NCBI GenBank assembly: GCA_041641295.1
Contig: JBEPYO010000001.1
Span: 704,001 to 768,000 of the forward strand
Source of the DNA: Nitrososphaerota archaeon
GTDB lineage: Archaea > Thermoproteota > Nitrososphaeria_A > Caldarchaeales > Calditenuaceae
Length of the DNA: 64,000 bases
Reading direction: 5' to 3'
Program-made: the position numbers and the translations under genes
The notes under the pieces: model-generated
Databases searched by the model: none
What the model was told of the DNA's origin: nothing
The model's input: the letters and a program-made list of their open reading frames with translations, nothing else
Shown: positions 21,904 through 62,504 of the stretch, piece by piece
How the letters are laid out: every line of letters begins with the position of its first letter
How positions within the stretch are numbered: the stretch's first letter is position 1

Positions 21904-22079
21904 CCGTAAGCACGCATGAAAACTATTTTCAGCAGCTAGGGAGCGTGACGGCTGAAGGGCTTGTAAATGTATTGTTAGTAAGTTAGTCATCCAATACCTG
22001 CCGAAAACAGCATCGCGTATAGTAACTAGTGCCTGTAGTAAAAATTTATATGCCGCCACCGTTGTTCACAACTCCGAAT

Positions 22080-23393: not shown

Positions 23394-23405
23394 AGATACA
23401 TTGAG

Positions 23406-24248: not shown

Positions 24249-25060
24249 TGGGCAGAGGAATGTATGAAAGGCTCTCATCCATCCTATCTTATCTTTACCT
24301 CATCCTTGTCTGTACGGCAATACTCCTACCCCTTTCAATAACTCTATACAGGGCTATTGTCGTCTATAATCCTGACGGAAGCATAACTATATCGTTCCAA
24401 TCCTACACAATGATATCCGAGGCATTTTGGGATAAAGTGCTCGTAAACGTTTCAATATCGCTGCTTACTGTGGCGATAGATGTTGCTATAGCAGTTCCGG
24501 CAGCCTATGCTCTTGTAAAATATGAACTAAAGGCCAAGAGATTAATCTTTACTTATCTTAACGGCGTCTGGTATGTTCCTGGCATATCATACGGTCTCGC
24601 ACTTGTACTAAGTTACTATTTTGTCTATAAGTTCCTCTTAGGTTTTTGGGGGTTTGTAGTTGCATATTCCACTGGCTTCATGCTTTTAGCACTCTTAACA
24701 GCGATAGTGGCCTTCAGGAACCTCGACCCTGTCTATGAAGAGGCGGCTAGGTGTCTTGGGGCTGGGAGGCTGAAAACCTTCTTCAAAGTAACGCTACCCC
24801 TTGTTGGCCCCGGCATAACAGCTGGTGTCGTCCTAATTCTTGTATTATCACTGAATGAATTCATCACAGCCCTGTTATTGTCCGGCCCCACTAGGGTTAA
24901 AACGGCCCCGCTTCAGGTTTTCAGCGACATTAGACACGCGGGGATTCAACCGTTCGTTGCCGCAGAGGCGACCGTTCTCCAACTAGTATCACTTGCCATC
25001 GTGATTCTCTATCTAAAATTCTTTGGGACAAAATATTTGAGGGGGGCCATAATGATCTAA
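24248..25060 (+). CDS. ABC permease (PotC-like)
   Basis: EEAARCLGAG EAA loop, SLNEF. Confidence 0.9.
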   Translation: MGRGMYERLSSILSYLYLILVCTAILLPLSITLYRAIVVYNPDGSITISFQSYTMISEAFWDKVLVNVSISLLTVAIDVAIAVPAAYALVKYELKAKRLIFTYLNGVWYVPGISYGLALVLSYYFVYKFLLGFWGFVVAYSTGFMLLALLTAIVAFRNLDPVYEEAARCLGAGRLKTFFKVTLPLVGPGITAGVVLILVLSLNEFITALLLSGPTRVKTAPLQVFSDIRHAGIQPFVAAEATVLQLVSLAIVILYLKFFGTKYLRGAIMI

Positions 25061-25065
25061 TCTAG

Positions 25066-26154
25066 GTGGAACTGATGACAAGAGTGGAGGCTATAGACCT
25101 CGTCAAGAGATATGGCTCATTCGTCGCTGTAGACAAAGTTACTCTCAGGGCGCGAGAAGGAGAGTTAGTAACTATCCTCGGTCCAAGTGGTTGTGGCAAA
25201 TCCACAACGCTGCGTATGCTCGCGGGTCTCATACAGCCTGATGGGGGGCGAATATTCTTCGATGAGAGAGACGTCACTTCTCTCCCTCCAGATAAGCGGA
25301 ATATAGGATTCGTATTTCAACGAGTAGCTCTATTTCCACACATGAATGTATACAAAAATGTAGCGTTTGGATTGGAAATGAGGAAAATGCCGAAAAGAGT
25401 GATTCAGGAAAGAGTGAAAGAAGCTCTGCGGCTGGTACATATGGAGGGGTATGAGGATAGAATGCCCTCCCAGCTAAGCGGTGGTCAAGCTCAAAGGGTG
25501 GAAATCGCACGCGTTCTAGCCACCGATCCTGAAGTCCTCCTCTTTGACGAGCCTCTCAGCAATATAGACGCGAAACTCAAGGACGAGCTGAAGTACGAGA
25601 TTAGAAGGATTCAGAGAGAGACTAGGAAGACATTGATATACGTGACCCACGACCAAGCTGAGGCTTTCGCTATATCAGACAGAGTTTACGTCATGAACAA
25701 TGGAAGAATAGAACAAGAAGGAACTCCACTTGAGATATACACTAACCCGAGAACACCTTTCATCGCCTCATTCATAGGGACAACTAACTTCATAGAGACG
25801 AGTTTAAAGGACTATGACGAGAAGGGTGGGATCGCGACACTTGAGGCCTCTGGACTAGAGATAAGAGTCAGGCATCCAAGCATCCTATTAGATAGGCGGA
25901 GGAGATACTTCATCAGCATAAGACCCGAAGACATAAAAGTGATTAATCCCGATGACCAGAAAAGCTATCTAAATTCTTTTAAGGGCACTGTTGAAGACGC
26001 CATCTTTATTGGAACAACCGTGAGACTGAACATAAACGTTAACGGGCTACTTCTAAAGGTTGACACTTACGGCGCTGAACGGTTCAACTTTTTGGACTCT
26101 AAGGGCAAGGAGGTTGTTATTGGGTTTGACAGCTGCACCATACTAAACATGTAA
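25066..26154 (+). CDS. ABC ATPase (PotA-like)
   Basis: GPSGCGKST, LSGGQ, DEPLSN, VTHDQ. Confidence 0.95.
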   Translation: MELMTRVEAIDLVKRYGSFVAVDKVTLRAREGELVTILGPSGCGKSTTLRMLAGLIQPDGGRIFFDERDVTSLPPDKRNIGFVFQRVALFPHMNVYKNVAFGLEMRKMPKRVIQERVKEALRLVHMEGYEDRMPSQLSGGQAQRVEIARVLATDPEVLLFDEPLSNIDAKLKDELKYEIRRIQRETRKTLIYVTHDQAEAFAISDRVYVMNNGRIEQEGTPLEIYTNPRTPFIASFIGTTNFIETSLKDYDEKGGIATLEASGLEIRVRHPSILLDRRRRYFISIRPEDIKVINPDDQKSYLNSFKGTVEDAIFIGTTVRLNINVNGLLLKVDTYGAERFNFLDSKGKEVVIGFDSCTILNM

Positions 26155-26229: not shown

Positions 26230-27012
26230 TTAGGTTTTTAACTCTTTAAGTATTTTTACGATTGTCTTCGCTTTTTCTTCTTCTGAGCCCTCGAGGAACT
26301 TTCTCAGCCTCTGGGGTGGCGCTATTGACTGGAGCTCGATTACGTCTGTCCTTGACCCTGTCTTGCCTGTGAGGTTTAAATCCAGCTCGAGGTCGTTAGC
26401 AGTCCACACTGTTATTTTGAACTCTCGTTCGGCCCATCTCTTTCTCTTAAAGTCGGGAAATCTGGGCGTGTTGCTTCCTAGCTCTACTGACACTACTACA
26501 GGTAACGGTACTTTCACCACTTCATACCCGCCTCTTACCGTGCGTTTAGCTACTACAGCTCTATCCTCTATGCTAATTTGTGATACATAGGAGATGTTGT
26601 GGTATCCGAGCCACTCGGCTATCTGGGGAGGGACCTGAGATGTTCCTGAGTCAGAGGTACTCTCGCCGCAGAGGACTATGTCTGGCTTTAGCCTTTTTAT
26701 GGCCTGGGCTAAGACATATGATGTGGCGTATGTGTCTGCCCCCGCGAAGGCTTTGTCGGAGAGGAGTATCGCGTCGTCAGCGCCCATAGCTACGCACAGC
26801 TTTAGGAAGGGCTCAAAGAATGGTGGTCCCATAGACAACACTGTGACCTTCCCACCATGCCTGTCCTTGAGTTGCAGCGCTGCCTCGACGGCGTTTTTAT
26901 CTGCATCGTTCAGCTCATTCTCAGCCGATGCCCTGTCCACTGTCTTAGTTATTGGGTCAAACCTAACTTGCTCAACCTTTGGAACAACCTTAACACACAC
27001 CACTATGTCCAT
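26230..27012 (-). CDS. etfB: Electron transfer flavoprotein beta subunit
   Basis: MDIVVCVKVVP, AGADTYATS, DSGTSQVP; start moved to ATG 27012. Confidence 0.93.
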   Translation of the reverse strand: MDIVVCVKVVPKVEQVRFDPITKTVDRASAENELNDADKNAVEAALQLKDRHGGKVTVLSMGPPFFEPFLKLCVAMGADDAILLSDKAFAGADTYATSYVLAQAIKRLKPDIVLCGESTSDSGTSQVPPQIAEWLGYHNISYVSQISIEDRAVVAKRTVRGGYEVVKVPLPVVVSVELGSNTPRFPDFKRKRWAEREFKITVWTANDLELDLNLTGKTGSRTDVIELQSIAPPQRLRKFLEGSEEEKAKTIVKILKELKT

Positions 27013-27013
27013 T

Positions 27014-27994
27014 TCATCCACCCTCCTTCTCAAGCTCCTCAACAATCCTTGGAACTAGTTTGAATAGGTCAGCTTCCACGCAGTAGTCGGAGAACTGGAA
27101 TATCGGGGCGTTTCTGTCGATGTTGACCGAGATTACTGTCTTCACATCGCGGATACCTGAGACGAAGTGTGACGCTCCACTAACTCCTAGGATTAAAGCA
27201 ATCTTAGATCTTAGGCTGACGCCTGTGGAGCCTACTTGAACGTCTCTGGGTGCAAGGCCTAGGTCTGCTAGGGGCCTCGTTACCGCCAGTTGTGCACCCA
27301 TTTTCTCGGCGAGCGTCTTGATGAGGGTGAGGTCTCCTCCGGTCCCCATCCCTGCCACAACAACTTTTTCAGCCCTCGTAATGTCCACCACCTTTGCCAC
27401 ATGCCTCTCAACTATTTTCCACCCATCTGTCGGATGGAGATCAGGGCTAAACCTTTGGATCTCCGCCTCACGCCCTGTTGGGCTCGGCTTCTCGAAAACT
27501 CCCGGCCTCACCGTCGCAATCTGTAGGACGCCTGGCCTGAATTTGCAGACAGCTACGATGCTCCCGCCAAAGCCCGGTACATGTCCTATTAGTCTCCCGT
27601 CTGAGGGGTCTATGCCGAGGTATGTTACATGGGCTATTAGTCCTGCCCCAGTCCTAACGGCCAGCCTAGCGGCTATGTCGACCCCATTATAGGTTGCTCC
27701 GAAAAGCACTGTCTCGGGTTTCTCCCTCTCAACCAGCTGGTGTAGGGCCATGGCGTGTTTCGCCGGGTCATAGACAGCCAGTTCACTGTGTTCAACATAG
27801 TACACTTTGTCGACGGGGTATCTTGAGACTTCTTTGACGATTTCTTCCATTCCCCAGCCTGTTAGGACGGCTGCAGTTCTCGTATTACTCTGAGCCCCAA
27901 GTTCAGCCGCTTTACCGATTATCTCCAATGATACATCCTCAATCCCTTCGGGCCCCACTTCCACGAAAGACCATATCTCACCCATCTTGACCAC
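27014..27994 (-). CDS. etfA: Electron transfer flavoprotein alpha subunit
   Basis: QVGSTG, GVSGASHF, NIDRNAPIF. Confidence 0.93.
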   Translation of the reverse strand: MVKMGEIWSFVEVGPEGIEDVSLEIIGKAAELGAQSNTRTAAVLTGWGMEEIVKEVSRYPVDKVYYVEHSELAVYDPAKHAMALHQLVEREKPETVLFGATYNGVDIAARLAVRTGAGLIAHVTYLGIDPSDGRLIGHVPGFGGSIVAVCKFRPGVLQIATVRPGVFEKPSPTGREAEIQRFSPDLHPTDGWKIVERHVAKVVDITRAEKVVVAGMGTGGDLTLIKTLAEKMGAQLAVTRPLADLGLAPRDVQVGSTGVSLRSKIALILGVSGASHFVSGIRDVKTVISVNIDRNAPIFQFSDYCVEADLFKLVPRIVEELEKEGG

Positions 27995-29117
27995 CTACCG
28001 CAGCTTCTAGAAGCTCCGCAACATCCATTACCCTAAGGGGTGCTTTCTGAACCTTTGCAGAGTCTTCGAAGTTTATTATGCAGTAGGGGCACGAGGTTAC
28101 CAAGATTTCTGACCCTGTTTCAACTGCTTGTTTTACCCTCATGTTTGATGGTCTCTCCTCGGGTTTTGACTCCAACAGTATCCGCCCCCCTCCTCCTCCG
28201 CAGCAGAGGGATAGTTCTTTTGAGAGGCTCATTTCTGAGAATGAAAGTTGTTTGACACTCTCTATCAGTCTTCGAGGCTGTTCGTATATCTTTGCGTATC
28301 TACCTAGATAGCATGGGTCGTGATAGGTTACTCTCGCATCTAGCTGTGCATTGAGTGATAGTTTCCCCGCGTCCATGAGCTCTGCGAGATACTCTGTGTA
28401 GTGGTGGACCTCATACTCTCCTCCATACTTGGGATAGATGTCCCGGAACATGATGTAGCAGTGGGGGGAGAGGGCTATTATCCTCCTGATACCTAGAGAG
28501 TTGAACTTGGCTATGTTCTCGCTGACCAGTTCTTCAAGGAAGTCTGTCTCACCGGCGTGAAAGACGGGGTCGCCGCAACACCTCTCTTCGTCTCCGAGGA
28601 CTGTGAAATCGACTCCTGCCTTAAGAAGGAGCTTCACTATCGCGGATGCTATTCTCTGGAGTCGTATATCGTAAGATGAGATGCATCCGATGTAGAGGAG
28701 CGTATCGCTTCTCTTCTTCGCTATGTTTGAGCCCAGCTTGTCGAGCCATTGGCCTCTTGTCCGGGAGGGGTAGCCCCACGGGTTTCCATCCTCATAGACC
28801 CTCCAGAGGGCTTGAGTGAGTTGTGCGGGGGTTCTGTTGCTCCTGAACCAGATTCTCCTCAACTCTTGAATTACTCTTGTGACTTTAACATTTCGCGGGC
28901 ATACTGATTCGCATGCCCTGCACATCATGCAGAGGTATGGGTCGATGTTTACTGGGAGGCCTAGCTGTATCCTTCGGAGAAGCTGTCTTGGGCTTAGTTT
29001 GGGGCCGTCAAATATGTTGAGGGGGCAGGCGGCCGTGCATGCTCCGCACTGGAAGCAGGCCGCAATGTTTTCGGCTAGATCCCTGTCTTTGACGAGGTCT
29101 GATAGTAGTTGGTACAT
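27978..29117 (-). CDS. HdrD/GlpC-like Fe-S oxidoreductase (2x[4Fe-4S] plus two CCG domains)
   Basis: CFQCGACTAACP, CMMCRACESVCP, ERCCG, YHDPCYLGR, CCGGGG, TSCPYC. Confidence 0.9.
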   Translation of the reverse strand: MYQLLSDLVKDRDLAENIAACFQCGACTAACPLNIFDGPKLSPRQLLRRIQLGLPVNIDPYLCMMCRACESVCPRNVKVTRVIQELRRIWFRSNRTPAQLTQALWRVYEDGNPWGYPSRTRGQWLDKLGSNIAKKRSDTLLYIGCISSYDIRLQRIASAIVKLLLKAGVDFTVLGDEERCCGDPVFHAGETDFLEELVSENIAKFNSLGIRRIIALSPHCYIMFRDIYPKYGGEYEVHHYTEYLAELMDAGKLSLNAQLDARVTYHDPCYLGRYAKIYEQPRRLIESVKQLSFSEMSLSKELSLCCGGGGGRILLESKPEERPSNMRVKQAVETGSEILVTSCPYCIINFEDSAKVQKAPLRVMDVAELLEAAVGGQDG

Positions 29118-32100
29118 TTAGCCGCTCACCTCCATCTTCGCCTTTTTCAGACTCATCACGACCTCGTGGGCCTCAGTCATCTTCTCTGCAAACCTCTTGG
29201 CCTCTGCGGCGCTTATCCAGTGTAGCTGGAGCCTCTTCGGATCTATGTTGCGGGCCTGTATTATTTTGAGCCATTGCTCGTATCGTCTCTTAGTGTTGAG
29301 GTTGGCGTAGTTGTAGTGGCAGTCCTGTGGCCAACAGCCTGTTACGAAGACGGCCCCGGCACCCTTCTTGAATGCGTGCAAAATTAGCTTCTGCGAAACG
29401 CGTGCAGAGCACATTGTCCGTATGACCCTGCATGTAGGCGGGTACTGTATCTTGAGGATACCTGCTAGGTCTGCTCCTGCGTAGCTGCACCAGTTACAGG
29501 CGAAGACTATTGCCTTCTCCTCCGGGTTCTCAGCTAGCGCCGCGTCTATTTGCGCCATTATTTGCTCGTCTGTGAACCCAGGCATCGTTATAGCCCCCTC
29601 GACGTTACACTCGGCAACACATGCACCACATCCTTGGCAGAGGCCCGGAATGATCTCTATCCATTTTCTCAGTTCGCCTCTGATCGCACCATATGGGCAG
29701 ACCTGCGCGCACCTCATGCACTTAGTGCATTTTTGCGGGTCTATGACTGGGATGAAGGGCTCTTTCTCGAGCTGTGGTGATGTGAGGAGTGCGGCTGCCT
29801 TTGCGGCTGCGGCCAATCCCTGCGAGATGCTCTCCCTAACATCTTTGGGTCCTTGGGCGACCCCTGCGAGAAAGACGCCCTGTGTTATTGATTCAACAGG
29901 GCCCAGCTTTGGATGGAGTTCGAGGAAGAATCCCTCCGAGTCCTTGGCGACTCTGAGCTGCTGAGCCGCCGCAATCTCTCCCGGAGGATCTATGGCGGTA
30001 GCCAGCACGACGTAGTCTGCTGGTATATTTAGTGTCTCTCCAATTGTGATGTCTCGCACCGTTATGCCGCCCTCGCCTATTTGGACAAGGTCTTCAATCG
30101 GCTTTTCCGTTCCAACCCTGATGAATCTTACACCTTCTTCGCAGGCTTTCCTGTAAAGCTCCTCAGCCCCACGCCCATAGGTCCTCACGTCCTTGACAAT
30201 AACTGAGACGTTCTTTCCGCTCTTCCTAAGCTTGAGGGCGTGGTAGGTAATGGTCTGGCAGCAATATCTTGAGCACCCCCTATTCAGGTTCCTAGAACCC
30301 ACACATCCGATAAAGACTATGTTACTAGCATCCTTTGGAACGCCGTCCATCTCGTATTCAAGCAGTGTCACAACTTTTGGCCTGTCAGTTCCGATTATAG
30401 GCCAGTTTGGCTCGTGGACTTTACCGCCTGTGGCTAAGATTATGGCGCCTACGTCTAGTTCCTCGCCGTTGGATAGTTTTACGTGGTAGTTGCCGACGAA
30501 CCCTGTTACTTCTGTCACCTCTGTGCCCAAGTGGACCTTGGCACCAGACCTCTCAAGCTGTTTTATCTTCCACTGCAGGAAGCGCTGTGCATCTATGCCG
30601 GAGGGGGCAATTTCTTTAAGATGTCTGAGGAGGCCGCCTAGCTCGTGTTCCTTCTCAACTAGATGTGTCTCGAACCCCATCTCTGCAAGGGCGGTGGCGG
30701 CGGTTATCCCAGCCACACCTCCCCCGATTACTAGGGCCTTTTGCTGGACGGGGGTGAACAGCTTGGTCATTGGGTTTTGTCGGACCACTTTGGCGACCGC
30801 CATCGAGATTAGGTCTATGGCTTTCCTAGTTGCCTCTTCGGGTTGGTTCTTGTGAACCCAAGAGTTGAGGTTGCGTATGTTAGCCATCTCAATGAGGTAT
30901 GGGTTAAGCCCTGCCCTTGCACAGGCCCTCATGAAGGTTGGGCTATGGGTCTTCGGCGAACAGGCAGCTATAACAATCCTGTTGAGCCTCTTCTCCCTTA
31001 TCACATTCTCGATATGCTTCGTACCAGCTCCAGAGCATGAGAACCTCTGGTCCTCTACATGCACTACATAGGGTATTTTCTTGGACTGTTCAACGGCAGT
31101 TTTTATATCGACTACCCCAGCTATATTAGATCCGCAGTGGCAGATGAAGACCCCAACGCGGGGCTCCCCCAGGGCGTCTATCGTTTCCTCGAAAATTTCG
31201 GGTTCTACGGACCTTGAGGTCAGATGAGTTAGCGCCTTCGCAGCGGCCGCACCCGCCTCTGTAACACTGTCGGGAATGTCCTTGGGACCGCTCGCACATC
31301 CACAGACGTATATCCCTCTCCTCGATGTTCCGACGAAGTCTCCGTCAATCTCGTATGATTTGATGAAGCCGTCTTCTCCCACCTCTATCCCAAGGGTTTT
31401 AGCCAGTCTGTTTAATTCTTCTGATGGAACGAGGGCCGTTGAAAGGACAACCATGTCGAAGGTTTCTCTCCGCAGCTCTCCTGTGGTCGTGTCCTCATAG
31501 ACTACGTCTATGCCTTCGCCGTTGGGGATAACTCTTCCAGGCCTGCTCCGTATAAATCTGACACCACTCTTCTTCGCCCTCTCAAACATCTCGTCGAAGC
31601 CCTTTCCATAAGCCCTTATGTCCATGTAGAATATTGTGACGTCTTTGATTCCATGGTCGACAAGCTGCAGCGCCTCCTTAATACTGTACATGCAGCAGAC
31701 CCTGCTGCAGAAGCTGTAGAACCTTTTATCACGAGCACCAACGCATAGGATGAATGCTACTCTCTCCGGGTGGCGGTGGTTGCTGGGCTTTATGACCTCA
31801 CCCCTTGAAGGGCCGCTCGACTGCAGCAGTCTCTCGAGCTCCATCGCCGTGAGGATGTCGGGGTGTCTTCCATAGCCGAACTCAGGGATTAGCGAGGCGT
31901 CAAAGAGGTCCGAGCCAGCCGCAACTATTATTGCGCCTACATTCAGTTCATGGATCTTCTCCCTCATCTCGAAGTCTATGCATTTTGGCCCGCATGCCTC
32001 GACGCACCTGTTACAGGGTAGGTAGTTGGGCGGCTTGTTCAAGCAGTGCTCAATGTCTATTACGTATGTTCCTGGCTCGGCCTGGTCGAAGGGGAGGTAG

Positions 32101-32504
32101 ATGGCCTTCCTCGCACCCATCCCTACGTCAAACTCGTTCTTCAGTATGACTGGGCAGGCGGGTACGCAGTCGCCGCACCTCGTACACTCGTCGGTGACAA
32201 AGCGGGGCTTCTGGACAACTTTTACATGGAAGTTCCCAGCCTCGCCTCTTACCTCGACAACCTCGGCCAAGGTTAGGACCTTAATGTTCTTGTTCTGCAT
32301 CACCTCGCTCAGCTTGGGCGCTTCAATGCAGATCGAGCAGTCCATGGTGGGGAAGTTCTTGTCTAGAGCCGCCATCCTACCCCCTATCACGGGGCTTTTC
32401 TCAACGAGGTAGACCTTGGCACCCGCCTTGGCTAGGTCGAGGGATGCCTGAACCCCCGCAATCCCACCACCTATAACCAGTACAGCGTCCGCCAACCCCC
32501 TCAC
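29118..32504 (-). CDS. hdrA: Tandem HdrA-like flavoprotein with C-terminal MvhD domain
   Basis: Two GGG(I/V)AG FAD motifs, FPTMDCSIC, CSRVCCMY, ferredoxin inserts, C-terminal FACNWCSYAGAD...CSAR...GC...DCHY. Confidence 0.9.
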   Translation of the reverse strand: MRGLADAVLVIGGGIAGVQASLDLAKAGAKVYLVEKSPVIGGRMAALDKNFPTMDCSICIEAPKLSEVMQNKNIKVLTLAEVVEVRGEAGNFHVKVVQKPRFVTDECTRCGDCVPACPVILKNEFDVGMGARKAIYLPFDQAEPGTYVIDIEHCLNKPPNYLPCNRCVEACGPKCIDFEMREKIHELNVGAIIVAAGSDLFDASLIPEFGYGRHPDILTAMELERLLQSSGPSRGEVIKPSNHRHPERVAFILCVGARDKRFYSFCSRVCCMYSIKEALQLVDHGIKDVTIFYMDIRAYGKGFDEMFERAKKSGVRFIRSRPGRVIPNGEGIDVVYEDTTTGELRRETFDMVVLSTALVPSEELNRLAKTLGIEVGEDGFIKSYEIDGDFVGTSRRGIYVCGCASGPKDIPDSVTEAGAAAAKALTHLTSRSVEPEIFEETIDALGEPRVGVFICHCGSNIAGVVDIKTAVEQSKKIPYVVHVEDQRFSCSGAGTKHIENVIREKRLNRIVIAACSPKTHSPTFMRACARAGLNPYLIEMANIRNLNSWVHKNQPEEATRKAIDLISMAVAKVVRQNPMTKLFTPVQQKALVIGGGVAGITAATALAEMGFETHLVEKEHELGGLLRHLKEIAPSGIDAQRFLQWKIKQLERSGAKVHLGTEVTEVTGFVGNYHVKLSNGEELDVGAIILATGGKVHEPNWPIIGTDRPKVVTLLEYEMDGVPKDASNIVFIGCVGSRNLNRGCSRYCCQTITYHALKLRKSGKNVSVIVKDVRTYGRGAEELYRKACEEGVRFIRVGTEKPIEDLVQIGEGGITVRDITIGETLNIPADYVVLATAIDPPGEIAAAQQLRVAKDSEGFFLELHPKLGPVESITQGVFLAGVAQGPKDVRESISQGLAAAAKAAALLTSPQLEKEPFIPVIDPQKCTKCMRCAQVCPYGAIRGELRKWIEIIPGLCQGCGACVAECNVEGAITMPGFTDEQIMAQIDAALAENPEEKAIVFACNWCSYAGADLAGILKIQYPPTCRVIRTMCSARVSQKLILHAFKKGAGAVFVTGCWPQDCHYNYANLNTKRRYEQWLKIIQARNIDPKRLQLHWISAAEAKRFAEKMTEAHEVVMSLKKAKMEVSG

Positions 32505-33058
32505 CTCCTCCCAGAAACACCTATACTGGCCAGCAGCTCGGATGCTATGCTGTAGCCCTGCCGGACTGCCTTGCGGTTAAGGTCAGCCGCCTTTGGGAAC
32601 CTATCGGCCAGCGCCTTTTCCACCGACTCCAAGGACGGCGTGCCCAGGACAGCAACTATGGCACCAAGTATCACGATATTTGCGACTATCTTTCTTCCTA
32701 GACTCTCTGCCACCTCAATGGCTGGCACCGGCAAGACCTTGTGGTCCTGCGAATCGTGTTTAACGAGTTCTTTCACGGTTACTATTACTCCGCCGCGCTT
32801 AACGTGTCTGAGGTTTTGTACGAAGCCCTCGTCATACATTGTGGCTAGCACGTCTAGCTTGGTTATGAGAGGGTAGTCTATGGTCTCGTCCGATATTATT
32901 ACGTCGGCTCTAGACCAGCCCCCTGTTATGTATGGGCTGTAGCCCTCAGTCACCACTGCCTCCTTGCCGTCGTATATTGCCGCGGCCCTCCCAAGTATGT
33001 GGCCAGCCGTTATGGCCCCTTGACCTCCCAACCCGGTTATCCTGACCTCGTATCTCAA
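32501..33058 (-). CDS. korC: 2-oxoacid:ferredoxin oxidoreductase gamma subunit
   Basis: GLGGQG, ANIVILGA. Confidence 0.88.
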   Translation of the reverse strand: MRYEVRITGLGGQGAITAGHILGRAAAIYDGKEAVVTEGYSPYITGGWSRADVIISDETIDYPLITKLDVLATMYDEGFVQNLRHVKRGGVIVTVKELVKHDSQDHKVLPVPAIEVAESLGRKIVANIVILGAIVAVLGTPSLESVEKALADRFPKAADLNRKAVRQGYSIASELLASIGVSGRR

Positions 33059-33909
33059 ATGCCCTCCCCCCTCCCAGAGGCCCTCCTGATGGTCTCCTGG
33101 ATAAGCTCCTGGTAACTCGGTCTCCTCCTATCCACGAAGTTTCCAACAACCAGCGGCTCGCCCTGAAGACGTATGTCTATCTTACTTAGATCGGCATTAT
33201 GGTCTACCACCGAATGTTTTCTGAAATACTCCATCATGTCGAGTGCCTCGGGGAAGTTGTTGAACTCGCCGAAGGTGGGCGGACAGGGAGATATGACCTC
33301 AATAAATGCGAATCCCTCCACACTCATCATACGCTTTATCGCGTTGATCAGCTGCCGCACGTGCAGGGTTGTCCACCTAGCAACGAAGGAGGCGCCAGCA
33401 GCGGCCACTAGGTAAGGTATGTTGAATGGGTTTTCAAAGTTGCCGTAGGGCGAAGTGTATGTCTTTGCCCCGAGTGGAGTAGTTCCACCGTGCTGGCCGC
33501 CCGTCATACCATAGTTGAAGTTGTTGACCATTATCACGTTGATGTCAACGTTCCTCCTAGCAGCGTGTATCAGATGATTCCCGCCTATGGTGCAGATGTC
33601 TCCGTCGCCTGAGATGACTGTGACCTCCAAGTCGGGCCTCACGAGAGATAGGCCTGTGGCAAATGCTATGGCACGACCATGAGTCGTATGGAACGAGTCG
33701 AGATGCATGTAGCCTGAAACCCTCCCAGTACAGCCTATACCTGAAATGCAGACATGCTTCTCAGGAGGAATACCCGATGCCTCGATGGCGTCCGCGTAGG
33801 CGGCCATGACTATGCCGATGCCGCATCCCGGGCACCAGATGTGTGGAAGCCTCTCACTCCGCAGCAGCCTGTCTCTAGGATGGCGTTGAGCCTTAACCAC
33901 TTGGGTCAC
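33055..33909 (-). CDS. korB: 2-oxoacid:ferredoxin oxidoreductase beta subunit
   Basis: WCPGCG, SGIGC, HGRA, GDGD, YGMTGGQ, SPCP. Confidence 0.92.
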   Translation of the reverse strand: MTQVVKAQRHPRDRLLRSERLPHIWCPGCGIGIVMAAYADAIEASGIPPEKHVCISGIGCTGRVSGYMHLDSFHTTHGRAIAFATGLSLVRPDLEVTVISGDGDICTIGGNHLIHAARRNVDINVIMVNNFNYGMTGGQHGGTTPLGAKTYTSPYGNFENPFNIPYLVAAAGASFVARWTTLHVRQLINAIKRMMSVEGFAFIEVISPCPPTFGEFNNFPEALDMMEYFRKHSVVDHNADLSKIDIRLQGEPLVVGNFVDRRRPSYQELIQETIRRASGRGEGI

Positions 33910-35051
33910 GCAGCAGCCACCTCCACCGCATCCACGATGACATTAGGCTCTATCAGGCTGCCCGGCGCCCAGTTAACCTCTATGACAGGGCATTTAGCAT
34001 GCTCTCTGACAGGATGGACGAGCTGGCCGAAGTTTATCTCAGGGACCACGAGGACGTTGACGCGCTGGCTCAGCCTCTCAATCACGTCGCTTGGGAAGGG
34101 CCATATAGTGATGAGCTGTAGCAGCCCGGCCTTAATCCCACGTGAGCGAGCCTGCTTAACGGCATTCAAGGCCGACCTAGCAGTAGACCCATAAGCAACC
34201 ACAACAACCTCAGCATCATCCGTCATGAACTCCTTATACATCCAGAGCTCACGGGCGTGATTCCTAATCTTGCCGAGAAGATACCTCAGCATTCTATCAG
34301 AAACCTCTTGAGAGGTAGTCGGATAGCCTCTCTCATCATGAGTGAGGCTGTCAATGTTTACACGGCAGCCCGTCCCCACTATGGGCATTGGATTCACGTC
34401 AGCGGAGTAATCGAATGGCAGCCTAGTGGAGAGGAGGCGCGGATCCATAACCTTTCTCTCCACTATCTCGATCTCTTCGGCCGGGGGGATGACCACTTTC
34501 TCCCACATCAGGCCTACCAGCTGGTCGGCTAGGACTATGACTGGTGTGCGAAGCCTTTCCGCCGTATTGAAGGCACGAATGGTTAGGTCGAAGAACTCTT
34601 GGACGCTGCTGGGAGCGTAGACAACCGTCTCTAGGTCTCCGTGAGAGCCCCACCTAGCCTGCATCACATCGCCCTGTCCTATCAGTGTTGGTATTCCTGT
34701 GCTGGGCCCTGCCCTCTGAACGTTAACAATGACTATCGGCGCTTCCATTATGAATGCTAACCCTATGTTCTCCATCATCAGGCTGAAGCCTGGGCCGGAT
34801 GTTGCGGTCATGGCTTTGGCTCCGGCATAAGACGCGCCTATAAGGGCGGCCACACTCGCCATCTCATCCTCCATCTCCACAGCTATCCCGCCGACCTGCG
34901 GAAACCTTACACAAGCCCTCTCGAAAATCTCGCTGGACGGGGTGATTGGGTATCCGGCGAAGAACCTACACCCAGCTAGTATGGCGGCCTCGACACACGC
35001 GAAGTTTCCCATCATGAAGTGAACACCGGGTCTCGGCAAGCCGCTACTCAT
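33906..35051 (-). CDS. korA: 2-oxoacid:ferredoxin oxidoreductase alpha subunit
   Basis: GYPITPSSE, EDE, ATSGPGFSLM, QRAGPSTG. Confidence 0.92.
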   Translation of the reverse strand: MSSGLPRPGVHFMMGNFACVEAAILAGCRFFAGYPITPSSEIFERACVRFPQVGGIAVEMEDEMASVAALIGASYAGAKAMTATSGPGFSLMMENIGLAFIMEAPIVIVNVQRAGPSTGIPTLIGQGDVMQARWGSHGDLETVVYAPSSVQEFFDLTIRAFNTAERLRTPVIVLADQLVGLMWEKVVIPPAEEIEIVERKVMDPRLLSTRLPFDYSADVNPMPIVGTGCRVNIDSLTHDERGYPTTSQEVSDRMLRYLLGKIRNHARELWMYKEFMTDDAEVVVVAYGSTARSALNAVKQARSRGIKAGLLQLITIWPFPSDVIERLSQRVNVLVVPEINFGQLVHPVREHAKCPVIEVNWAPGSLIEPNVIVDAVEVAAA

Positions 35052-35055
35052 ACAG

Positions 35056-35334
35056 CTAGCTCACCTCCACCGTGTAGATGGCTAGCTCAGGGCAAATCAG
35101 ACTACACATCTTGCAATTGATGCAGTCGTTTTCCTTCCCTGGCTTAACTCTGGGATACCTGTAACCGTTTGGATTGAACTGGTCAGACCGCTCGAGGACA
35201 TCCATGGGACAGAAGCTCCAACAAAATCCGCACTCCTTACACCTCTCAGGTATAATGTAGACCTGCCCCAACGGTCTACGAAACAAGGCTAGGTTAATCG
35301 GCTCACGTAATATTTTCAAGGCTAGAGCCCCCAA
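35056..35334 (-). CDS. korD: 2-oxoacid:ferredoxin oxidoreductase delta (ferredoxin) subunit
   Basis: CKECGFCWSFCP and CINCKMCSLICP. Confidence 0.88.
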   Translation of the reverse strand: MGALALKILREPINLALFRRPLGQVYIIPERCKECGFCWSFCPMDVLERSDQFNPNGYRYPRVKPGKENDCINCKMCSLICPELAIYTVEVS

Positions 35335-35393
35335 GGCTCAGTAAATCGCTGTGAGTCCGCATAATTATACACTAACAAATATTCTACCTAATC

Positions 35394-35443
35394 CAATATA
35401 TAGCATATTAAATTCAAATGAGACTTCATTAAACAATATATAG
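35394..35443. promoter_or_regulatory. Divergent promoter region with a 10-bp direct repeat and central palindrome
   Basis: CAATATATAG at 35394-35403 and 35434-35443, with AATGA-N4-TCATT at 35417-35430 between them. Confidence 0.45.
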
Positions 35444-35465
35444 GTCTTCGGGGGAGATAACTATT

Positions 35466-36533
35466 GTGGGGGGCAAAGCCCAGGCCAACCAGCTGATGAC
35501 ACTTCTAGCCTCATATCCCCCACTAACATGGAGCGAGGATCGATTCATCCACTCACCTCTCTACAGGATTGAAGAGTTCGATGAAAAACTCCTTCTCTTC
35601 CCAAGCCACTCAGACGCGGAGATCATTCTGGAGAATCTTATCCGCCTCCTCGGACTCCAAAAACAAAGAACCTCCCCAACAGCCTATCTAATCCAGAAGA
35701 ACGAGGTCTTTAAAACCCTGAGAAATTTCCTATGGATAGTTAGGAGGAGCTGGAGAGACGAGACAGTCCGGGTCATCTGGTCCACATTATATGTGGCTCA
35801 CGCCAAGGGGTGGGGTAATATCCCGCTCCACATGATTGCGGATGTGAGCGGCCTCGACCAGGCAAAATGCCGAGAGATTCTGGCGAAAATCTTTGAGGAT
35901 GGGGGGCTGGTTGACGGCGAAAAAGTAAGGGCTGGACCCAAGCATTTCGCAGAGGCTTTAGAACTCATGCTTCAACAGATTCCCACTTGGAGCGAGGAAC
36001 TGGTCATGTCCTTCCTCTGCACAGAGATATACGCGTCGGTGGAGGACATATACGTGAAGGTGCGGCCTTATGGGCTGAGCATTGCGGCAGTTTACAAAAT
36101 AGTGCAAAAGCTTAAAAAAGCCAACCATATAGCCCGGGTGAGATATAGCCGGAGAAGACCACAGGGGCCCATGAGAGAGGTGTTCTCACCAAACTGCCGC
36201 AACTGCTTCTACGGATACAGCAGCGAGGAGAAATGTCTACAACACCTCCTCTCCGAGATGGAGACCTATTTCAAGGAAAACTATGGGAAAACCTTTAGCG
36301 TAGAAGAGAAGATGGCACTATACAAATCGCTTAGGCTGACGCCATTCGGGCCGCGAGTTTTACGAAAGCTACTCACTACGCTCAAGCATGTTAGAAATGT
36401 GGAGCAGTCCGTCAAGGATGAGAGGCTGGCCGGTCTTTTGAGAAAGCTGGAGGAGCTATGCGGTATAAAACTAATCCTACCATCCTTTGAATTCAGGACC
36501 CTAAACAATATTGGACAAAATCCACCAATCTGA
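35466..36533 (+). CDS. Hypothetical multi-HTH protein, probable transcription regulator
   Basis: HTH-like segments (LHMIADVSGLDQAKC; SVEDIY...LSIAAVYKIVQKL) and CRNC; divergent from the kor operon. Confidence 0.55.
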   Translation: MGGKAQANQLMTLLASYPPLTWSEDRFIHSPLYRIEEFDEKLLLFPSHSDAEIILENLIRLLGLQKQRTSPTAYLIQKNEVFKTLRNFLWIVRRSWRDETVRVIWSTLYVAHAKGWGNIPLHMIADVSGLDQAKCREILAKIFEDGGLVDGEKVRAGPKHFAEALELMLQQIPTWSEELVMSFLCTEIYASVEDIYVKVRPYGLSIAAVYKIVQKLKKANHIARVRYSRRRPQGPMREVFSPNCRNCFYGYSSEEKCLQHLLSEMETYFKENYGKTFSVEEKMALYKSLRLTPFGPRVLRKLLTTLKHVRNVEQSVKDERLAGLLRKLEELCGIKLILPSFEFRTLNNIGQNPPI

Positions 36534-36566: not shown

Positions 36567-36887
36567 GTGAATAAAAGGGAGTTTCAGTGCCGTGACTGTA
36601 TACACTTCCTCCCCTACCCCCTCATCGAGGGTATTGGGACATGCTCAAACCCAGCCAGCTTAAACTATGACCGAGTGAGGTTTGGTGATGAAGAGCCCTG
36701 CGAGTTCTTCGGATTAGCAGTGCTCAGTGTCTCAGGCCTCGAAGGAGTGGAGTTCTACTGGTGCCACACATGCAGAAAACACTTGTACAGAGATGAACTC
36801 GAGTACCATGTGGGTCATAGGGTTTACACTGGAGCGGCTAAGACAGATGCTGAGTTTAACGCAGAGAGCACTATGGCCGCAGACTGA
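36567..36887 (+). CDS. Small Cys/His-rich metal-binding protein
   Basis: CRDCIHF...C...C and CHTC...H motifs in 106 aa. Confidence 0.65.
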   Translation: MNKREFQCRDCIHFLPYPLIEGIGTCSNPASLNYDRVRFGDEEPCEFFGLAVLSVSGLEGVEFYWCHTCRKHLYRDELEYHVGHRVYTGAAKTDAEFNAESTMAAD

Positions 36888-37083: not shown

Positions 37084-39054
37084 TTGCTTCTCTGGGAGCC
37101 TACAACAGAAGTGATAGAGAAGGCCAACATGACCCGGTTCATAGAATACGTCGATGACAAGGAGGGGCTTGGAATAGATCCGTTTGAAAGACGCGCGTAT
37201 TTTAAGCTGTATGAGTGGTCCATTGCAAATATACCTGAGTTCTGGGATGTGGTCTGGAGCTTTGTCGGGGTCAAGGCCTCTAAGCCGTACCAGCAGGTTG
37301 TTGATGATTTGGGTAGGTTCCCCGGAGCTTCATGGTTTATAGGTGCGAGGCTCAACTTCGCCGAAAACCTTCTCAGGGTAAGGGATGGGAAAACAGCCAT
37401 CATAGCTGTTAGGGAGGACGGGTTCTCAAGGAGGGTGTCCTACCTCGATTTATATCGTGAGGTTGTGGGGCTGGCTAAGGGTTTGCAGGAGGTGGGGGTT
37501 GGAGAGGGTGACAGAGTCTGCGGATATATTCCCAACACAGTTGAGGCTTGCGTAGGCATGCTTGCTACAGCCGCGCTTGGAGGAACATGGTCTTCCACAG
37601 GAACAGAAATAGGGGCTGAAGCTGTGGTCGACAGATTTGAACAGGTATCTCCCAAAGTACTCATCACAATCGATGGATACTTCTACAAGGGTAAGAGATA
37701 CAATATCTTAGAGAGGGTTAAGAAGATTGTTGACAATATACCTTCTATAGAGCGCGTGATTGTTGTCCCATACTTAGAGGAGAACCCCAAGATTGATGTA
37801 CTAAAGAATACTGTTCTTTATAGCGACTTCGTCGAGCCCGGCGATGGCTTCTCGTTCAAGCAGGTCTCATCCTCGACGCCCATATACATAATGTTCACCT
37901 CGGGGACCACGGGTAAGCCAAAATGCCTAGTCCAGTCTGTCGCAGGTATACTTGCTAACCACTTGAAGGAGCTTATCATACACACAGACCTAAAGCCGAC
38001 GGACACGATAACGTACATAACCTCCACCAGCTGGATGATGTGGAATTGGCTGATGACTTCTCTAGCCACAGGCGCTACACTGCTACTTTACGACGGCGAC
38101 CCAAACTATCCTGACTGGAGAAGGATGTGGAGCCTGATAGATGAGTATGGCGTCTCAATCTTCGGGTGCAGTGCAAGCTACATCAACTATCTCAGGGGTG
38201 TAAATGCCTCACCAAAGGGGAGCTTCGACCTTGCAACTCTGCGGGAGATATCGCAGACCGGCTCCCCCCTGTCTGCCGACGGATTTAAGTGGGTATATGA
38301 CGAGGTTAAGAGGGATCACCACTTCAACTCTATATCAGGCGGCACTGATATCAACGGCTGCTTTGCCATAGGTAGTCCGACGTTACCAGTCTATGCGGGG
38401 CAACTCCAATCACCAGCTTTGGGCATGAAGATAAAGTGTTACGATGAACACGGTAACCCGGTCTACGACAGAGAAGGAGAACTAGTGTGCGAGGCTCCAG
38501 CACCATCTATGCCACTTTACTTCCTCAACGATCCGAACAACGAGAAATATCTCGACGCATACTTCAGGTTCTATACTCACAAGAGGGTGTGGAGGCATGG
38601 AGACTACGTAATATTCCACAGCGACACAGGTGGAATTACCTTCCTAGGCAGGTCTGACGCTGTGATTAAGCGGTCTGGAGTTAGGATTGGGACTGCCGAG
38701 ATATATAGCGTAGTTGAGAAATTTAAAGAGATAGCTGATAGCATAGCGGTTGGGCAGAACTGGAAGGGTGACCAAAGAATAATACTTTTCGTGAAAATGG
38801 CGGCGGGATATTCTTTAACCGATGAGTTGAAGGATAGGATTAAAAAAGAGCTGAGGGAGAAGGTCTCACCCCGACATGTACCCGACATTATTTTGGAGGC
38901 GCCTGACATACCATATACATTTAACATGAAGAAGGTGGAGATAGCGGTTTCAAACATAATAAACGGTAGAAAAGTTATTAACAGGGACTCGCTAATCAAC
39001 CCTGAATCACTTGACTACTTCGAAAAAATCTTACCGCTGCTACAGGGTGATTAA
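37084..39054 (+). CDS. Acetoacetate-CoA ligase
   Basis: LNFAENLL, FTSGTTGKPK, WMMWNW, SISGGTD, GVRIGTAEIY. Confidence 0.9.
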   Translation: MLLWEPTTEVIEKANMTRFIEYVDDKEGLGIDPFERRAYFKLYEWSIANIPEFWDVVWSFVGVKASKPYQQVVDDLGRFPGASWFIGARLNFAENLLRVRDGKTAIIAVREDGFSRRVSYLDLYREVVGLAKGLQEVGVGEGDRVCGYIPNTVEACVGMLATAALGGTWSSTGTEIGAEAVVDRFEQVSPKVLITIDGYFYKGKRYNILERVKKIVDNIPSIERVIVVPYLEENPKIDVLKNTVLYSDFVEPGDGFSFKQVSSSTPIYIMFTSGTTGKPKCLVQSVAGILANHLKELIIHTDLKPTDTITYITSTSWMMWNWLMTSLATGATLLLYDGDPNYPDWRRMWSLIDEYGVSIFGCSASYINYLRGVNASPKGSFDLATLREISQTGSPLSADGFKWVYDEVKRDHHFNSISGGTDINGCFAIGSPTLPVYAGQLQSPALGMKIKCYDEHGNPVYDREGELVCEAPAPSMPLYFLNDPNNEKYLDAYFRFYTHKRVWRHGDYVIFHSDTGGITFLGRSDAVIKRSGVRIGTAEIYSVVEKFKEIADSIAVGQNWKGDQRIILFVKMAAGYSLTDELKDRIKKELREKVSPRHVPDIILEAPDIPYTFNMKKVEIAVSNIINGRKVINRDSLINPESLDYFEKILPLLQGD

Positions 39055-39608: not shown

Positions 39609-39695
39609 ACTGCCATGTACTTCATCCTCAAAATGAATTTGCTAATGGCGATGTTGTTTTAAAATGTTTAATTATCTCTGAGCATTTCTAGTCTT

Positions 39696-40835: not shown

Positions 40836-40844
40836 GGGTGTAAT

Positions 40845-45384: not shown

Positions 45385-45544
45385 GGCACTTAATGTCTTT
45401 GGCAGCGATTTAAACGTGGTTAGTCAGATTTGGCTCGCTTTTAGTGCTGGCAGGAGAATACCCGCCCTATCGTTCAAGAATTCGAGCCAAGTCTTCTTGA
45501 CATGGTCTCCTGAATATTTAAGCAGAGGAGGACTGGCAATATCT

Positions 45545-62442: not shown

Positions 62443-62504
62443 GATTGTGGCGTGGTAATCTAGATATTGCTGAGGGGAGGGTTTGTGTCTTGGGGGTTGT
62501 GGGT

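Follow-up and report, generated by a model that had tools for sequence, protein, structure and literature searches.

Organization of the kor-hdr-etf gene block

The region analysed here is a stretch of 64,000 nucleotides from a Nitrososphaerota archaeon of the Calditenuaceae (assembly GCA_041641295.1, contig JBEPYO010000001.1, positions 704,001 to 768,000 of the forward strand), which is referred to below as the window. It carries eight open reading frames (ORFs), all on the minus strand, which follow each other from position 35334 to 26230 in the order korD-korA-korB-korC, a gene for an HdrA-HdrA-MvhD fusion protein, hdrD, etfA and etfB. The order was taken from the ORF list of the window, and protein identities were assigned with Pfam and NCBIfam models. 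By these assignments the block codes for a 2-oxoacid:ferredoxin oxidoreductase (OFOR; called Kor here), for proteins of the heterodisulfide reductase (Hdr) type and for an electron-transferring flavoprotein (ETF). An initial annotation of the window had described a minus-strand block of eight genes; all eight ORFs were found at the positions given in it, and their families agreed with the Pfam and NCBIfam matches. It had also held the block to be free of genes for hydrogenase, formate dehydrogenase, Flx or separate HdrB and HdrC proteins, which the gene annotation of the window bore out.

The genes are tightly packed. One junction is a gap of 4 nt, three are overlaps of 4 nt (among them korC/hdrA) and one is an abutment, while, going by the listed starts, the remaining two are overlaps of 17 and 32 nt. 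A hydropathy check revealed no membrane-like segments in any of the eight module proteins. Upstream of korD lies an AT-rich intergenic region with TATA-like boxes (35335-35465), shared with a divergent conserved gene at 35466-36533; from its sequence it is a candidate promoter region.

Subunits of the 2-oxoacid oxidoreductase

KorD (35334-35056) comprises 92 amino acids (aa) from the listed TTG, with the real start possibly further in, and is a delta subunit with two [4Fe-4S] clusters. It matched Fer4 families, and its top NCBIfam match was OGOR_delta with 47.5 bits, under the cut-off of 125; korD is the first gene in at least 68 related loci. KorA (35051-33906, 381 aa; POR_N and PFOR_II) is the alpha subunit of a 2-oxoacid:acceptor oxidoreductase. 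It scored 505.6 bits with NF006412, over the cut-off of 411, carries the motif YPITP at residue 34, and had as its closest solved structures the alpha subunits of a 2-keto acid:ferredoxin oxidoreductase (1yd7, 2.4e-120) and of 2-oxoglutarate synthase (8ys5_A, 5.6e-71). KorB (33909-33055, 284 aa; TPP_enzyme_C) is the beta subunit, which binds thiamine pyrophosphate (TPP); it reached 235 bits with the model for the beta subunit of 2-oxoglutarate ferredoxin oxidoreductase (NF007207, cut-off 364), and the same subunit was its closest solved structure (8ys5_C, 1.8e-63). KorC (33058-32501, 185 aa), a gamma subunit of the POR family, reached 155 bits with NF006323, under the cut-off of 235, and its stop codon and the start of hdrA share 4 nt.

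Alpha, beta, gamma and delta subunits were thus all present with their TPP and iron-sulfur (Fe-S) domains, and only the alpha subunit scored over its NCBIfam cut-off. The nearest named solved relatives comprised, besides a generic 2-keto acid enzyme (1yd7), the 2-oxoglutarate enzymes 8ys5 and 6n2n. The substrate couple would be 2-oxoacid/acyl-CoA plus CO2, with 2-oxoglutarate as the likely 2-oxoacid. Couples of this kind have a potential of about -500 mV.

The HdrA-HdrA-MvhD fusion

The fusion protein (32504-29118, 1128 aa) consists of HdrA copy 1 (32504-31200, residues 1-435), HdrA copy 2 (31190-29529, residues 439-992) and an MvhD domain, a [2Fe-2S] adaptor (29522-29118, residues 995-1128 plus stop). 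Its top NCBIfam model was NF040770 ('HdrA2'), matched in three stretches with 1168 bits against a cut-off of 1100. The family FlpD/MvhD was matched at residues 999-1119 (Pfam, 2.3e-42; 5odc_D, 1.4e-33). Over the whole fusion the HdrA of 8rvu aligned with 2.1e-193. Residues 5-381 aligned with HdrA residues 151-525 (8rvu, 1.4e-109), which form the flavin domain with its inserted ferredoxin domain, residues 439-618 with HdrA 3-182 (N-terminal Fe-S domain), and residues 848-992 with HdrA 513-655 (C-terminal ferredoxin domain), while residues 995-1124 corresponded to MvhD in the alignment to solved structures.

Copy 1 has a flavin adenine dinucleotide (FAD) site, the motif DC56SIC59, the inserted ferredoxin domain with two [4Fe-4S] clusters and a CxGxRD...CSRxCC cluster, and has neither an N-terminal domain nor a C-terminal ferredoxin domain. 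Copy 2 has the N-terminal Fe-S domain, a FAD site and the C-terminal ferredoxin domain with two [4Fe-4S] clusters; DCSxC and the inserted ferredoxin domain are missing from it, and residues 619-733 contain no Cys. In an alignment of 16 fusions the residues G12, G14, G17, C56, C59, C107/110/113/117, C154/164/167/171 and C254/266/270/271 of copy 1 were invariant, as were C455/457/490/515, G594/596/599, C734/744/748/749, C926/929/932/936 and C956/959/962/966 of copy 2. Both halves carry an Fe-S motif at the position of NAD(P)H binding in enzymes of the thioredoxin reductase type. Because each copy holds domains that are absent from the other, the two halves are complementary, and their sequences suggest an internal pseudo-heterodimer. 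The same complementarity, interpreted as a heterodimer, is described for tandem and fused HdrA proteins from anaerobic methanotrophic archaea (ANME) within the accessible part of PMC9012536; the DCSxC Cys of copy 1 was equated with the 'Cys197' of that text by position alone.

An AlphaFold model of the fusion reached a mean predicted local distance difference test (pLDDT) value of 78.3 and a predicted template modelling (pTM) score of 0.80, with low confidence at the cluster-dependent loops 42-58 and 106-172. HdrA chains were its best fold matches (5odc_A, TM 0.75; 8rvu_a, TM 0.88). A search of the genome showed that the fusion holds the only MvhD of the host.

Some relatives of the fusion have unusual structures. 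In metagenome-assembled genomes (MAGs) of Candidatus Caldarchaeum an intein of about 525 aa is located exactly within DCSI|C of HdrA copy 1 (L004:10001-14956, and L008), and one such protein (P0006, 1602 aa) matched intein and LAGLIDADG Pfam families within the fusion. One genome of the host genus has the fusion read as two overlapping pieces (G243:C29:15235-18842; residues 2-573 and 530-1128). Two full-length paralogues (G228:C6:41646-45074 and G252:C12:20068-23451) contain one in-frame TGA each, which could be selenocysteine or a break.

A further paralogue of 1226 aa (L086:8550-12230, in the closed genome G115) has a KorD-like domain with two [4Fe-4S] clusters fused before HdrA-HdrA-MvhD. 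Downstream of it are a 102-aa protein with two [4Fe-4S] clusters, two citrate synthase fragments, a four-subunit OFOR at a distance of 1.7 kb, and aconitase; neither HdrD nor ETF was found at this locus. The fusion gives support of the Rosetta-stone type to a predicted contact between a ferredoxin domain and HdrA.

HdrD and ETF

HdrD (29117-27978, 379 aa) is a soluble protein of the EtfD type with two [4Fe-4S] clusters and two CCG domains. Its best solved relative was 9ojn_A (1042 aa) with 7.8e-52, compared with 2.2e-11 for HdrC and 6.2e-6 for HdrB; by sequence the ETF oxidoreductase EtfD of mycobacteria is therefore a far nearer relative of HdrD than either HdrB or HdrC is. Membrane anchoring of HdrD was ruled out (maximal hydropathy value KD19 1.67; 379 aa against 1042 aa for 9ojn_A). 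HdrB is defined, in part after PMC13083937, by two five-Cys CCG motifs for two noncubane clusters. We take 9ojn_A to be the Mycobacterium smegmatis EtfD of PMC13083937, whose accessible text gives a linear [3Fe-4S] cluster D1 with the ligands Cys503/538/581/584 and a noncubane [4Fe-4S] cluster D2 with the ligands Cys637/672/673/709/712 and His583, and suggests D2 as the entry point for electrons from ETF. The D2 ligands map to C269, C305, C306, C343, C346 and H219 of HdrD. These residues and the eight ferredoxin Cys were conserved in 60 of 60 module HdrDs, and the second CCG motif was complete in all of them. The first CCG site, corresponding to D1, was variable: C145, C180, C181 (the extra Hdr-type Cys) and C220 were present in 54, 54, 56 and 51 of the 60 proteins, respectively, and one Cys of the CxxC pair is replaced by Ser217, with Ser in 58 of 60. 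HdrD does not have the two complete five-Cys motifs of HdrB, its first motif being imperfect. Because the first site varies, the sequence would argue against disulfide chemistry at two clusters and for a role of HdrD as an electron relay.

EtfA (27994-27014, 326 aa) and EtfB (27045-26230) are the large and the small ETF subunit. EtfB has 271 aa as listed; its family matches in Pfam and NCBIfam begin only at residues 12-14, and an ATG at 27012, giving 260 aa, is the probable start. For each subunit five solved bifurcating ETFs occupied the top five places, with 5e-54 to 3.7e-30 for the large and 3.3e-48 to 4e-39 for the small subunit, whereas non-bifurcating ETFs gave 1e-26 or weaker. By these matches the module ETF is placed in the bifurcating (group 2) lineage.

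The Arg of the motif RPxFGG, present in 5 of 5 solved bifurcating ETFs, is Val139 in the EtfA of the window, and of 56 module proteins 54 had Val and 2 had Thr. In the accessible part of PMC10734219 this Arg (R140 in Thermotoga maritima) is needed, and its replacement abolishes ferredoxin reduction. R38 of EtfB was kept in 53 of 53 sequences. The motif G..GS.T.V is kept as well, and the recognition loop of EtfB (N181-x-P-R184-F185-x-D187) was nearly invariant. A profile search with EtfA among 1.84 billion representatives gave 6026 relatives with an E-value of 1e-30 or lower. In the top 150 of them the position of the Arg was taken by R (101 sequences), K (16) or V (21). Proteins with V or T were at ranks 1-3, 5-13, 16, 20 and 21, and because they crowd the top ranks, the change from Arg to Val marks the module's own clade within the bifurcating lineage. 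None of the three other ETF pairs of the host has a.P.[FY]GG motif.

Model of the HdrD-ETF complex

The initial annotation had suggested multimer modelling of HdrA-MvhD, HdrD and EtfAB, and the HdrD/EtfAB part of such a complex found support from modelling. EtfA, EtfB and HdrD were modelled with an alignment of 30 rows each, with HdrD as the partner and with 3 controls. The model scored 0.83, compared with 0.62 for the best of the 3 controls; the score mark used is met by 58 of 80 solved complexes and by 2 of 110 mismatched pairs. The runs agreed in at least 72% of the contacts, and the pLDDT of the partner was at least 86. In the modelled interface EtfB residues 182-189 face HdrD residues 94-119 and 190-196, with R184 and F185 of EtfB and W105 of HdrD, invariant in 30 of 30 sequences, at its centre. 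The EtfB region 182-189 is presumably the 'recognition loop' that anchors the partner dehydrogenases of ETF, and the model supports a docking of HdrD on this loop. A recall of a known EtfD-ETF complex by the model is unlikely because the accessible text of PMC13083937 states the ETF site on EtfD to be unknown.

Conservation and distribution of the block

A scan with the alignment of the 16 fusions, covering one genome per species, confirmed 537 relatives, of which the best 80 loci were kept; their gene order was read by tblastn with the window proteins. All eight genes were complete and collinear in 50 of the 80 loci, and collinear up to the contig end in another 27. The remaining three were a truncated locus (L018), a locus with inverted kor genes and all eight genes present (L038), and one without an etf match in its last 1 kb (L079). 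Every locus with enough upstream sequence carried the kor genes. Across the loci the median distance was -4 nt at five of the seven junctions, including korC-hdrA (n=78). The co-conservation of the gene order that the initial annotation had left to a synteny survey was thereby established, and the eight-gene arrangement is far beyond chance.

According to the record titles, the archaeal carriers belong to Caldarchaeales, Bathyarchaeia, Nitrososphaerales, Thermoplasmata/Thermoplasmatota and Aciduliprofundum and include one Heimdallarchaeote; the bacterial carriers belong to Anaerolineae, Dehalococcoidia, Thermoflexus, Elusimicrobiota, Rokubacteria/Methylomirabilota and Sysuimicrobiota and include one Acidobacteriote. 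The nearest loci were those of Caldarchaeales (Aigarchaeota) MAGs, with a fusion match of 94% in Candidatus Calditenuaceae archaeon HR02. Among 301 sampled genomes of the host phylum, 12 had a full-length fusion with at least 58% identity, and one had the fusion split in two. In four others it had 48-49% identity, and the one of these four that was checked (L085, in a closed genome) carries the whole block.

FastTree trees of KorA plus KorB, of EtfA plus EtfB and of HdrD were calculated for 46 complete loci and the window, the other 34 loci being excluded as incomplete. Each tree had a single change between Bacteria and Archaea, and the pairwise distances of the three sets were correlated with r = 0.887, 0.868 and 0.950 (1081 pairs). 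For this count the locus L042, whose title reads 'bacterium', was taken as archaeal; by title, each tree would have one extra change. Recent transfer between the domains was not seen on the same count. The Kor proteins of L042 (DAIDAB010000005.1) nest with strong support among Nitrososphaerales, and a label or binning problem is probable. By these sequence comparisons the block is a self-contained, co-evolving and patchily distributed unit.

Flanking genes and host genome

The flanks of the 80 loci (611 ORFs, single-linkage clusters) contained no metabolic gene conserved across phyla. Only regulators (HTH_10/BAT and MerR-like), a CBS protein and two proteins of unknown family recurred. Taxa for this survey were taken from the record titles, and L020 was tallied as Caldarchaeales although the tree places it in Sysuimicrobiota.

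An acyl-CoA dehydrogenase (ACAD) is encoded at 39696-40835 on the plus strand, 4.4 kb from korD and beyond four genes, which code for a 355-aa protein of unknown family, a Cys-rich 106-aa protein, an acyl-CoA synthetase and a methyltransferase. Among the 80 loci, acyl-CoA synthetase, methyltransferase, ACAD and thiolase neighbours recurred in no more than two, those of the closest relatives L001 and L002; a third locus, L044, had an ACAD-like match with 28% identity. The initial annotation had regarded the ETF as loaded by a divergently encoded ACAD. This could not be upheld, given the distance of the gene past four others and its recurrence in 2 of 80 loci, the three other ETF pairs of the host (one of them beside genes for thiolase and 3-hydroxyacyl-CoA dehydrogenase), the absence of the bifurcation Arg, and a recognition loop that is modelled as bound by HdrD. 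ACADs encoded elsewhere could feed the module ETF.

The host genome has 1.56 Mb and is 93.8% complete. It contains four ETF pairs, three CCG proteins (two of them outside the block) and four OFORs, and three heme-copper oxidase matches were over the cut-off. Of the ETF pairs outside the block, the one that adjoins thiolase and 3-hydroxyacyl-CoA dehydrogenase genes makes it unlikely that the module ETF is the ETF of beta-oxidation, and another adjoins a FixC-like flavoprotein. The single NiFe hydrogenase is of the sulfhydrogenase (group 3b-like) type and is encoded about 120 kb from the block in an operon for alpha, delta, FAD/NAD gamma and beta subunits and a maturation protease. An unlinked Mvh hydrogenase as the partner of MvhD was ruled out in the host genome, as this lone enzyme is a four-subunit sulfhydrogenase-like hydrogenase. 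The claim that the block lacks a hydrogenase partner thus extends to the host, which has no Mvh-type hydrogenase in its genome.

Of the other plus-strand genes, that of the 355-aa protein (35466-36533) had the same place in 12 loci of Caldarchaeales and Nitrososphaerales. The gene of the 106-aa protein with two CxxC pairs (36567-36887) was found in 11 loci (6 Thermoplasmata, 4 Caldarchaeales and 1 Nitrososphaerales). Neither protein had a Pfam match at E <= 0.01; the first could be a regulator and the second a small protein partner that binds metal. The region 37084-43766 codes for the acyl-CoA synthetase, the methyltransferase, the ACAD, two thiolase-like proteins and a ChsH2/DUF35-type protein with an oligonucleotide-binding (OB) fold, and looks like a lipid or acyl-CoA cluster common only to the two closest relatives. 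A 972-aa alpha-L-rhamnosidase with five matching Pfam domains is encoded at 45341-48259 in this Aigarchaeote, near a sugar-type ATP-binding cassette (ABC) transporter (22029-26154) and a transporter of the major facilitator superfamily (MFS). A tRNA-Phe gene (62370-62442) overlaps the listed start of a 352-aa ORF (62418-63476), and the real start of this ORF is therefore probably further in.

Proposed electron transfer and alternatives

The block probably codes for one uncharacterised redox enzyme complex that is kept intact in many archaea and bacteria. The reading that we tentatively favour is a single soluble complex in which electrons from 2-oxoacid oxidation pass through the HdrA flavin and HdrD-ETF to NAD+, with ferredoxin as a co-acceptor. 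KorABC would oxidise the 2-oxoacid, and KorD would hand single electrons to the [2Fe-2S] cluster of MvhD and to the C-terminal ferredoxin domain of HdrA; Kor would hold the position that hydrogenase or formate dehydrogenase has in the Hdr complexes of methanogens. It is placed on the MvhD side because the only MvhD of the genome has no Mvh-type hydrogenase to serve. The fusion would fold into an internal pseudo-heterodimer in which one FAD is fully wired, and the branch leading to HdrBC and the heterodisulfide in methanogens would be replaced by the EtfD-like HdrD. From HdrD, electrons would enter the ETF, held by the EtfB recognition loop, and pass from alpha-FAD to beta-FAD and then to NAD+; NAD(H) is assigned to the ETF because this is the only pyridine-nucleotide site seen in the module. 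The inserted ferredoxin domain of HdrA copy 1 would be a second exit, to free ferredoxin, and the downhill step to NAD+ could keep ferredoxin strongly reduced. The potentials given are -320 mV for NADH and about -450 mV for ferredoxin in the accessible part of PMC10734219, and -420 mV for ferredoxin and -140 mV for the heterodisulfide in that of PMC5861303. There is more support for the electron path than for the energy coupling; the attachment of Kor, the direction of flow and NAD(H) as the substrate are, like the coupling itself, what we infer. Of the bifurcating or confurcating role proposed in the initial annotation, the HdrA-type flavin module is present and the role is plausible, whereas the loading of the ETF by an ACAD did not hold.

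Several observations weigh against this proposal. Kor by itself is already a complete four-subunit enzyme. A donor at about -500 mV with NAD+ at -320 mV would reduce ferredoxin at a very low potential, the need for which is not evident, and even less so because the host has three heme-copper oxidase matches. The change from Arg to Val (54/56) may mean that the ETF behaves unlike its relatives, and its NAD(H) binding is a prediction. The block is patchy, with 4 of 8 genomes of the host genus carrying it, and is not a core enzyme of the tricarboxylic acid (TCA) cycle because of this patchiness. The 80 loci, chosen as best matches to the fusion, are orthologues by selection, and three of the four lower-identity fusions inspected (L086-L088) have other contexts. 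In the modelling, a control with EtfA replaced and EtfB kept still scored 0.62, and the margin of +0.21 is barely over the mark, with alignments that differ from those of the calibration of the tool.

In the model of the initial annotation, low-potential electrons from Kor and high-potential electrons from an ACAD, arriving via the alpha-FAD of ETF and HdrD, are confurcated to NADH, and 2-oxoacid oxidation pays for the re-oxidation of ETF. HdrD does resemble EtfD, which takes beta-oxidation electrons from ETF according to the accessible part of PMC13083937, the window, L001 and L002 carry genes for an ACAD, an acyl-CoA synthetase and thiolase-like proteins 1.7-8 kb upstream, and ACADs would be a natural high-potential partner that the HdrA-type fork otherwise lacks here. 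However, beyond these two of the 80 loci there is only the 28%-identity match of L044, and no flanking metabolic gene is conserved across phyla. Another ETF pair is found with the beta-oxidation genes, the recognition loop of EtfB is modelled as taken by HdrD, and the formation of 2 NADH from ferredoxin and acyl-CoA is uphill by standard potentials. The host, with its heme-copper oxidases, can also respire with oxygen. We consider this model quite improbable. Slightly less improbable is a flow in the reverse direction, in which NADH reduces ETF and HdrD and HdrA bifurcates, sending low-potential electrons into Kor for reductive carboxylation and high-potential electrons to a disulfide or another acceptor. 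OFORs are known to be reversible, reduced ferredoxin is scarce in the many aerobic or facultative hosts (heme-copper oxidases are found in this one), and a full CCG motif, including the additional Hdr-typical Cys, is retained in HdrD. The best solved matches of the fusion include methanogen Hdr supercomplexes, among them that of formate dehydrogenase, Hdr and formylmethanofuran dehydrogenase (7bkb), in which electrons are presumably channelled directly to the CO2-reducing enzyme. Such a flow would need a high-potential acceptor, but none is encoded or conserved nearby in the flank survey, and the first CCG site, which has Ser for one Cys of CxxC in 58 of 60 proteins and is degenerate in 4-9 of them, fits two-cluster disulfide chemistry poorly. 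HdrD is moreover modelled as ending on ETF rather than on a free substrate site, and most of the named hosts are usually described as heterotrophs.

The block may also code for a plain NAD+-dependent 2-oxoacid dehydrogenase, with electrons passing from Kor through Hdr and HdrD to ETF and NAD+, as in NAD-dependent phenylglyoxylate oxidoreductase, and with neither coupling nor ferredoxin. All sites needed for this are within the module, the bifurcation Arg has been lost from the ETF, NADH would suit an aerobic host, and subunits of NADH-dependent phenylglyoxylate dehydrogenase are distant NCBIfam relatives of KorA, KorB and KorC. Two HdrA flavins, about eight Fe-S clusters and an inserted ferredoxin domain with Cys invariant in 16 of 16 fusions nevertheless exceed the needs of a wire, and every characterised HdrA complex in the accessible part of PMC5861303 bifurcates; we give this possibility the same low standing as the reverse flow. 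Least probable of all appears to be the co-expression of two enzymes, an ordinary Kor that reduces free ferredoxin and a separate HdrA-HdrD-ETF enzyme that swaps electrons between ferredoxin and NAD(H). Although Kor comes with the usual set of four subunits, a delta ferredoxin of its own among them, and the block holds in L038 in spite of the inverted kor genes, the kor genes are present in every locus with enough upstream sequence, korC and hdrA have a median distance of -4 nt in 78 loci, the Kor tree mirrors those of ETF and HdrD, and a paralogue of the HdrA fusion has a KorD-like domain joined to it. Two separate enzymes would also leave the MvhD adaptor without a partner. In favour of two enzymes, linkage and binding are separable, as methanogen hdr and mvh genes are often unlinked and their products still form complexes according to the accessible part of PMC6085437.

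A more far-reaching version of the single-complex proposal, which we put forward as unlikely, is that the module represents a new class of flavin-based energy-coupling enzyme in which the HdrA and EtfAB lineages are hard-wired to a TPP-dependent OFOR. The ETF would have ceded bifurcation to HdrA with the change from Arg to Val. The enzyme would either super-charge ferredoxin from 2-oxoacid oxidation or drive an NADH-powered, CO2-fixing synthesis of 2-oxoacids in oxygen-exposed cells, and it would be old enough for a clean split between Bacteria and Archaea.

Relation to known complexes and significance

With the methanogen complexes MvhADG-HdrABC and FdhAB-HdrABC(-Fmd) (5odc, 8rvu, 7bkb) the module shares the FAD/Fe-S core of HdrA (2.1e-193 to 1.4e-151), the MvhD adaptor (1.4e-33) and the HdrC-like module of two [4Fe-4S] clusters with CCG domains. 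In contrast to them it has an OFOR in the operon and neither hydrogenase nor formate dehydrogenase (Fdh), its HdrA is duplicated, fused and asymmetric, and its HdrD unites HdrB and HdrC in one protein in which one CCG site is imperfect. ETF stands at the position of the heterodisulfide, and the host has heme-copper oxidases. HdrA2 of the Methanosarcina HdrA2B2C2 complex likewise has MvhD on its C-terminus, and its model, NF040770, was the top match. The score was, however, collected from three stretches of a two-copy protein, and HdrB2C2 is absent from the module; the label 'HdrA2' would be a misannotation for the fusion. Comparable in layout are the tandem or fused HdrA proteins of ANME in the accessible part of PMC9012536, with more than 1000 aa, a complementary N-terminal domain with its Cys ligand and occasional HdrD-like neighbours. 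In HdrA3/4 of that text the domain order is reversed, whereas in the module it is copy 1 that lacks the N-terminal domain, and the ANME partners are FdhAB-like while those of the module are Kor and ETF.

Mycobacterial EtfD (9ojn) and the ETF:menaquinone oxidoreductases of syntrophs share with HdrD the second set of CCG ligands with the His (60/60) and ETF as a partner. Unlike EtfD, HdrD has neither a membrane domain nor a heme b domain, and its first site contains CC plus Ser instead of the four-Cys set for a linear [3Fe-4S] cluster given for EtfD in the accessible text of PMC13083937. Its other electron partner would be HdrA, whereas that of EtfD is quinone. The bifurcating EtfAB proteins of Bcd-Etf (5ol2), CarCDE (6fah), LctBCD (7qh2), EtfABCX (7koe) and 4kpu are the closest solved ETFs for both subunits. 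Their partner is a flavoenzyme, whereas that of the module ETF is an Fe-S protein, and the module EtfA has no N-terminal ferredoxin domain. Class II benzoyl-CoA reductase, BamBCDEFGHI, reportedly follows the same logic, with a substrate module, HdrD-, HdrA- and MvhD-like subunits and an NAD(H) module. It is said to differ in its tungsten-containing substrate enzyme of the aldehyde oxidoreductase (AOR) type and in a NuoEFG-like NAD module, with no ETF.

No description of the kor-hdrA-hdrD-etf block was found in the literature on Aigarchaeota, Chloroflexi, Thermoplasmata, ANME and sulfate reducers or in surveys of bifurcating enzymes, subscription journals and supplements not being covered. The accessible part of PMC5861303, a review from 2018, assigns bifurcating complexes to four independent groups, namely those of EtfAB, a NuoF homologue, NfnB and HdrA. 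By its gene families the block joins two of these four, HdrA and EtfAB, with an OFOR, and if the proposal is true it would be the first enzyme to combine the HdrA and ETF modules, which are separate groups in that text.

In the energy conservation of methanogens and sulfate reducers, HdrA complexes have a central place. Elsewhere, the many HdrA homologues are routinely named 'heterodisulfide reductase' or 'hydrogenase iron-sulfur subunit' with no known substrate, and the block gives one large family among these orphans defined, testable partners in an OFOR, an EtfD-like relay and an ETF of the NAD type. Its carriers (Anaerolineae, Dehalococcoidia, Bathyarchaeia, Thermoplasmata, Caldarchaeales, Rokubacteria and a Heimdallarchaeote) belong to lineages that are dominant in sediments, in hot springs and in groundwater. 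If 2-oxoacid oxidation is indeed coupled to the reduction of NAD+ and ferredoxin, the complex would bear on the balance between ferredoxin and NADH in organisms in which OFORs replace the 2-oxoacid dehydrogenases, aerobic archaea among them.

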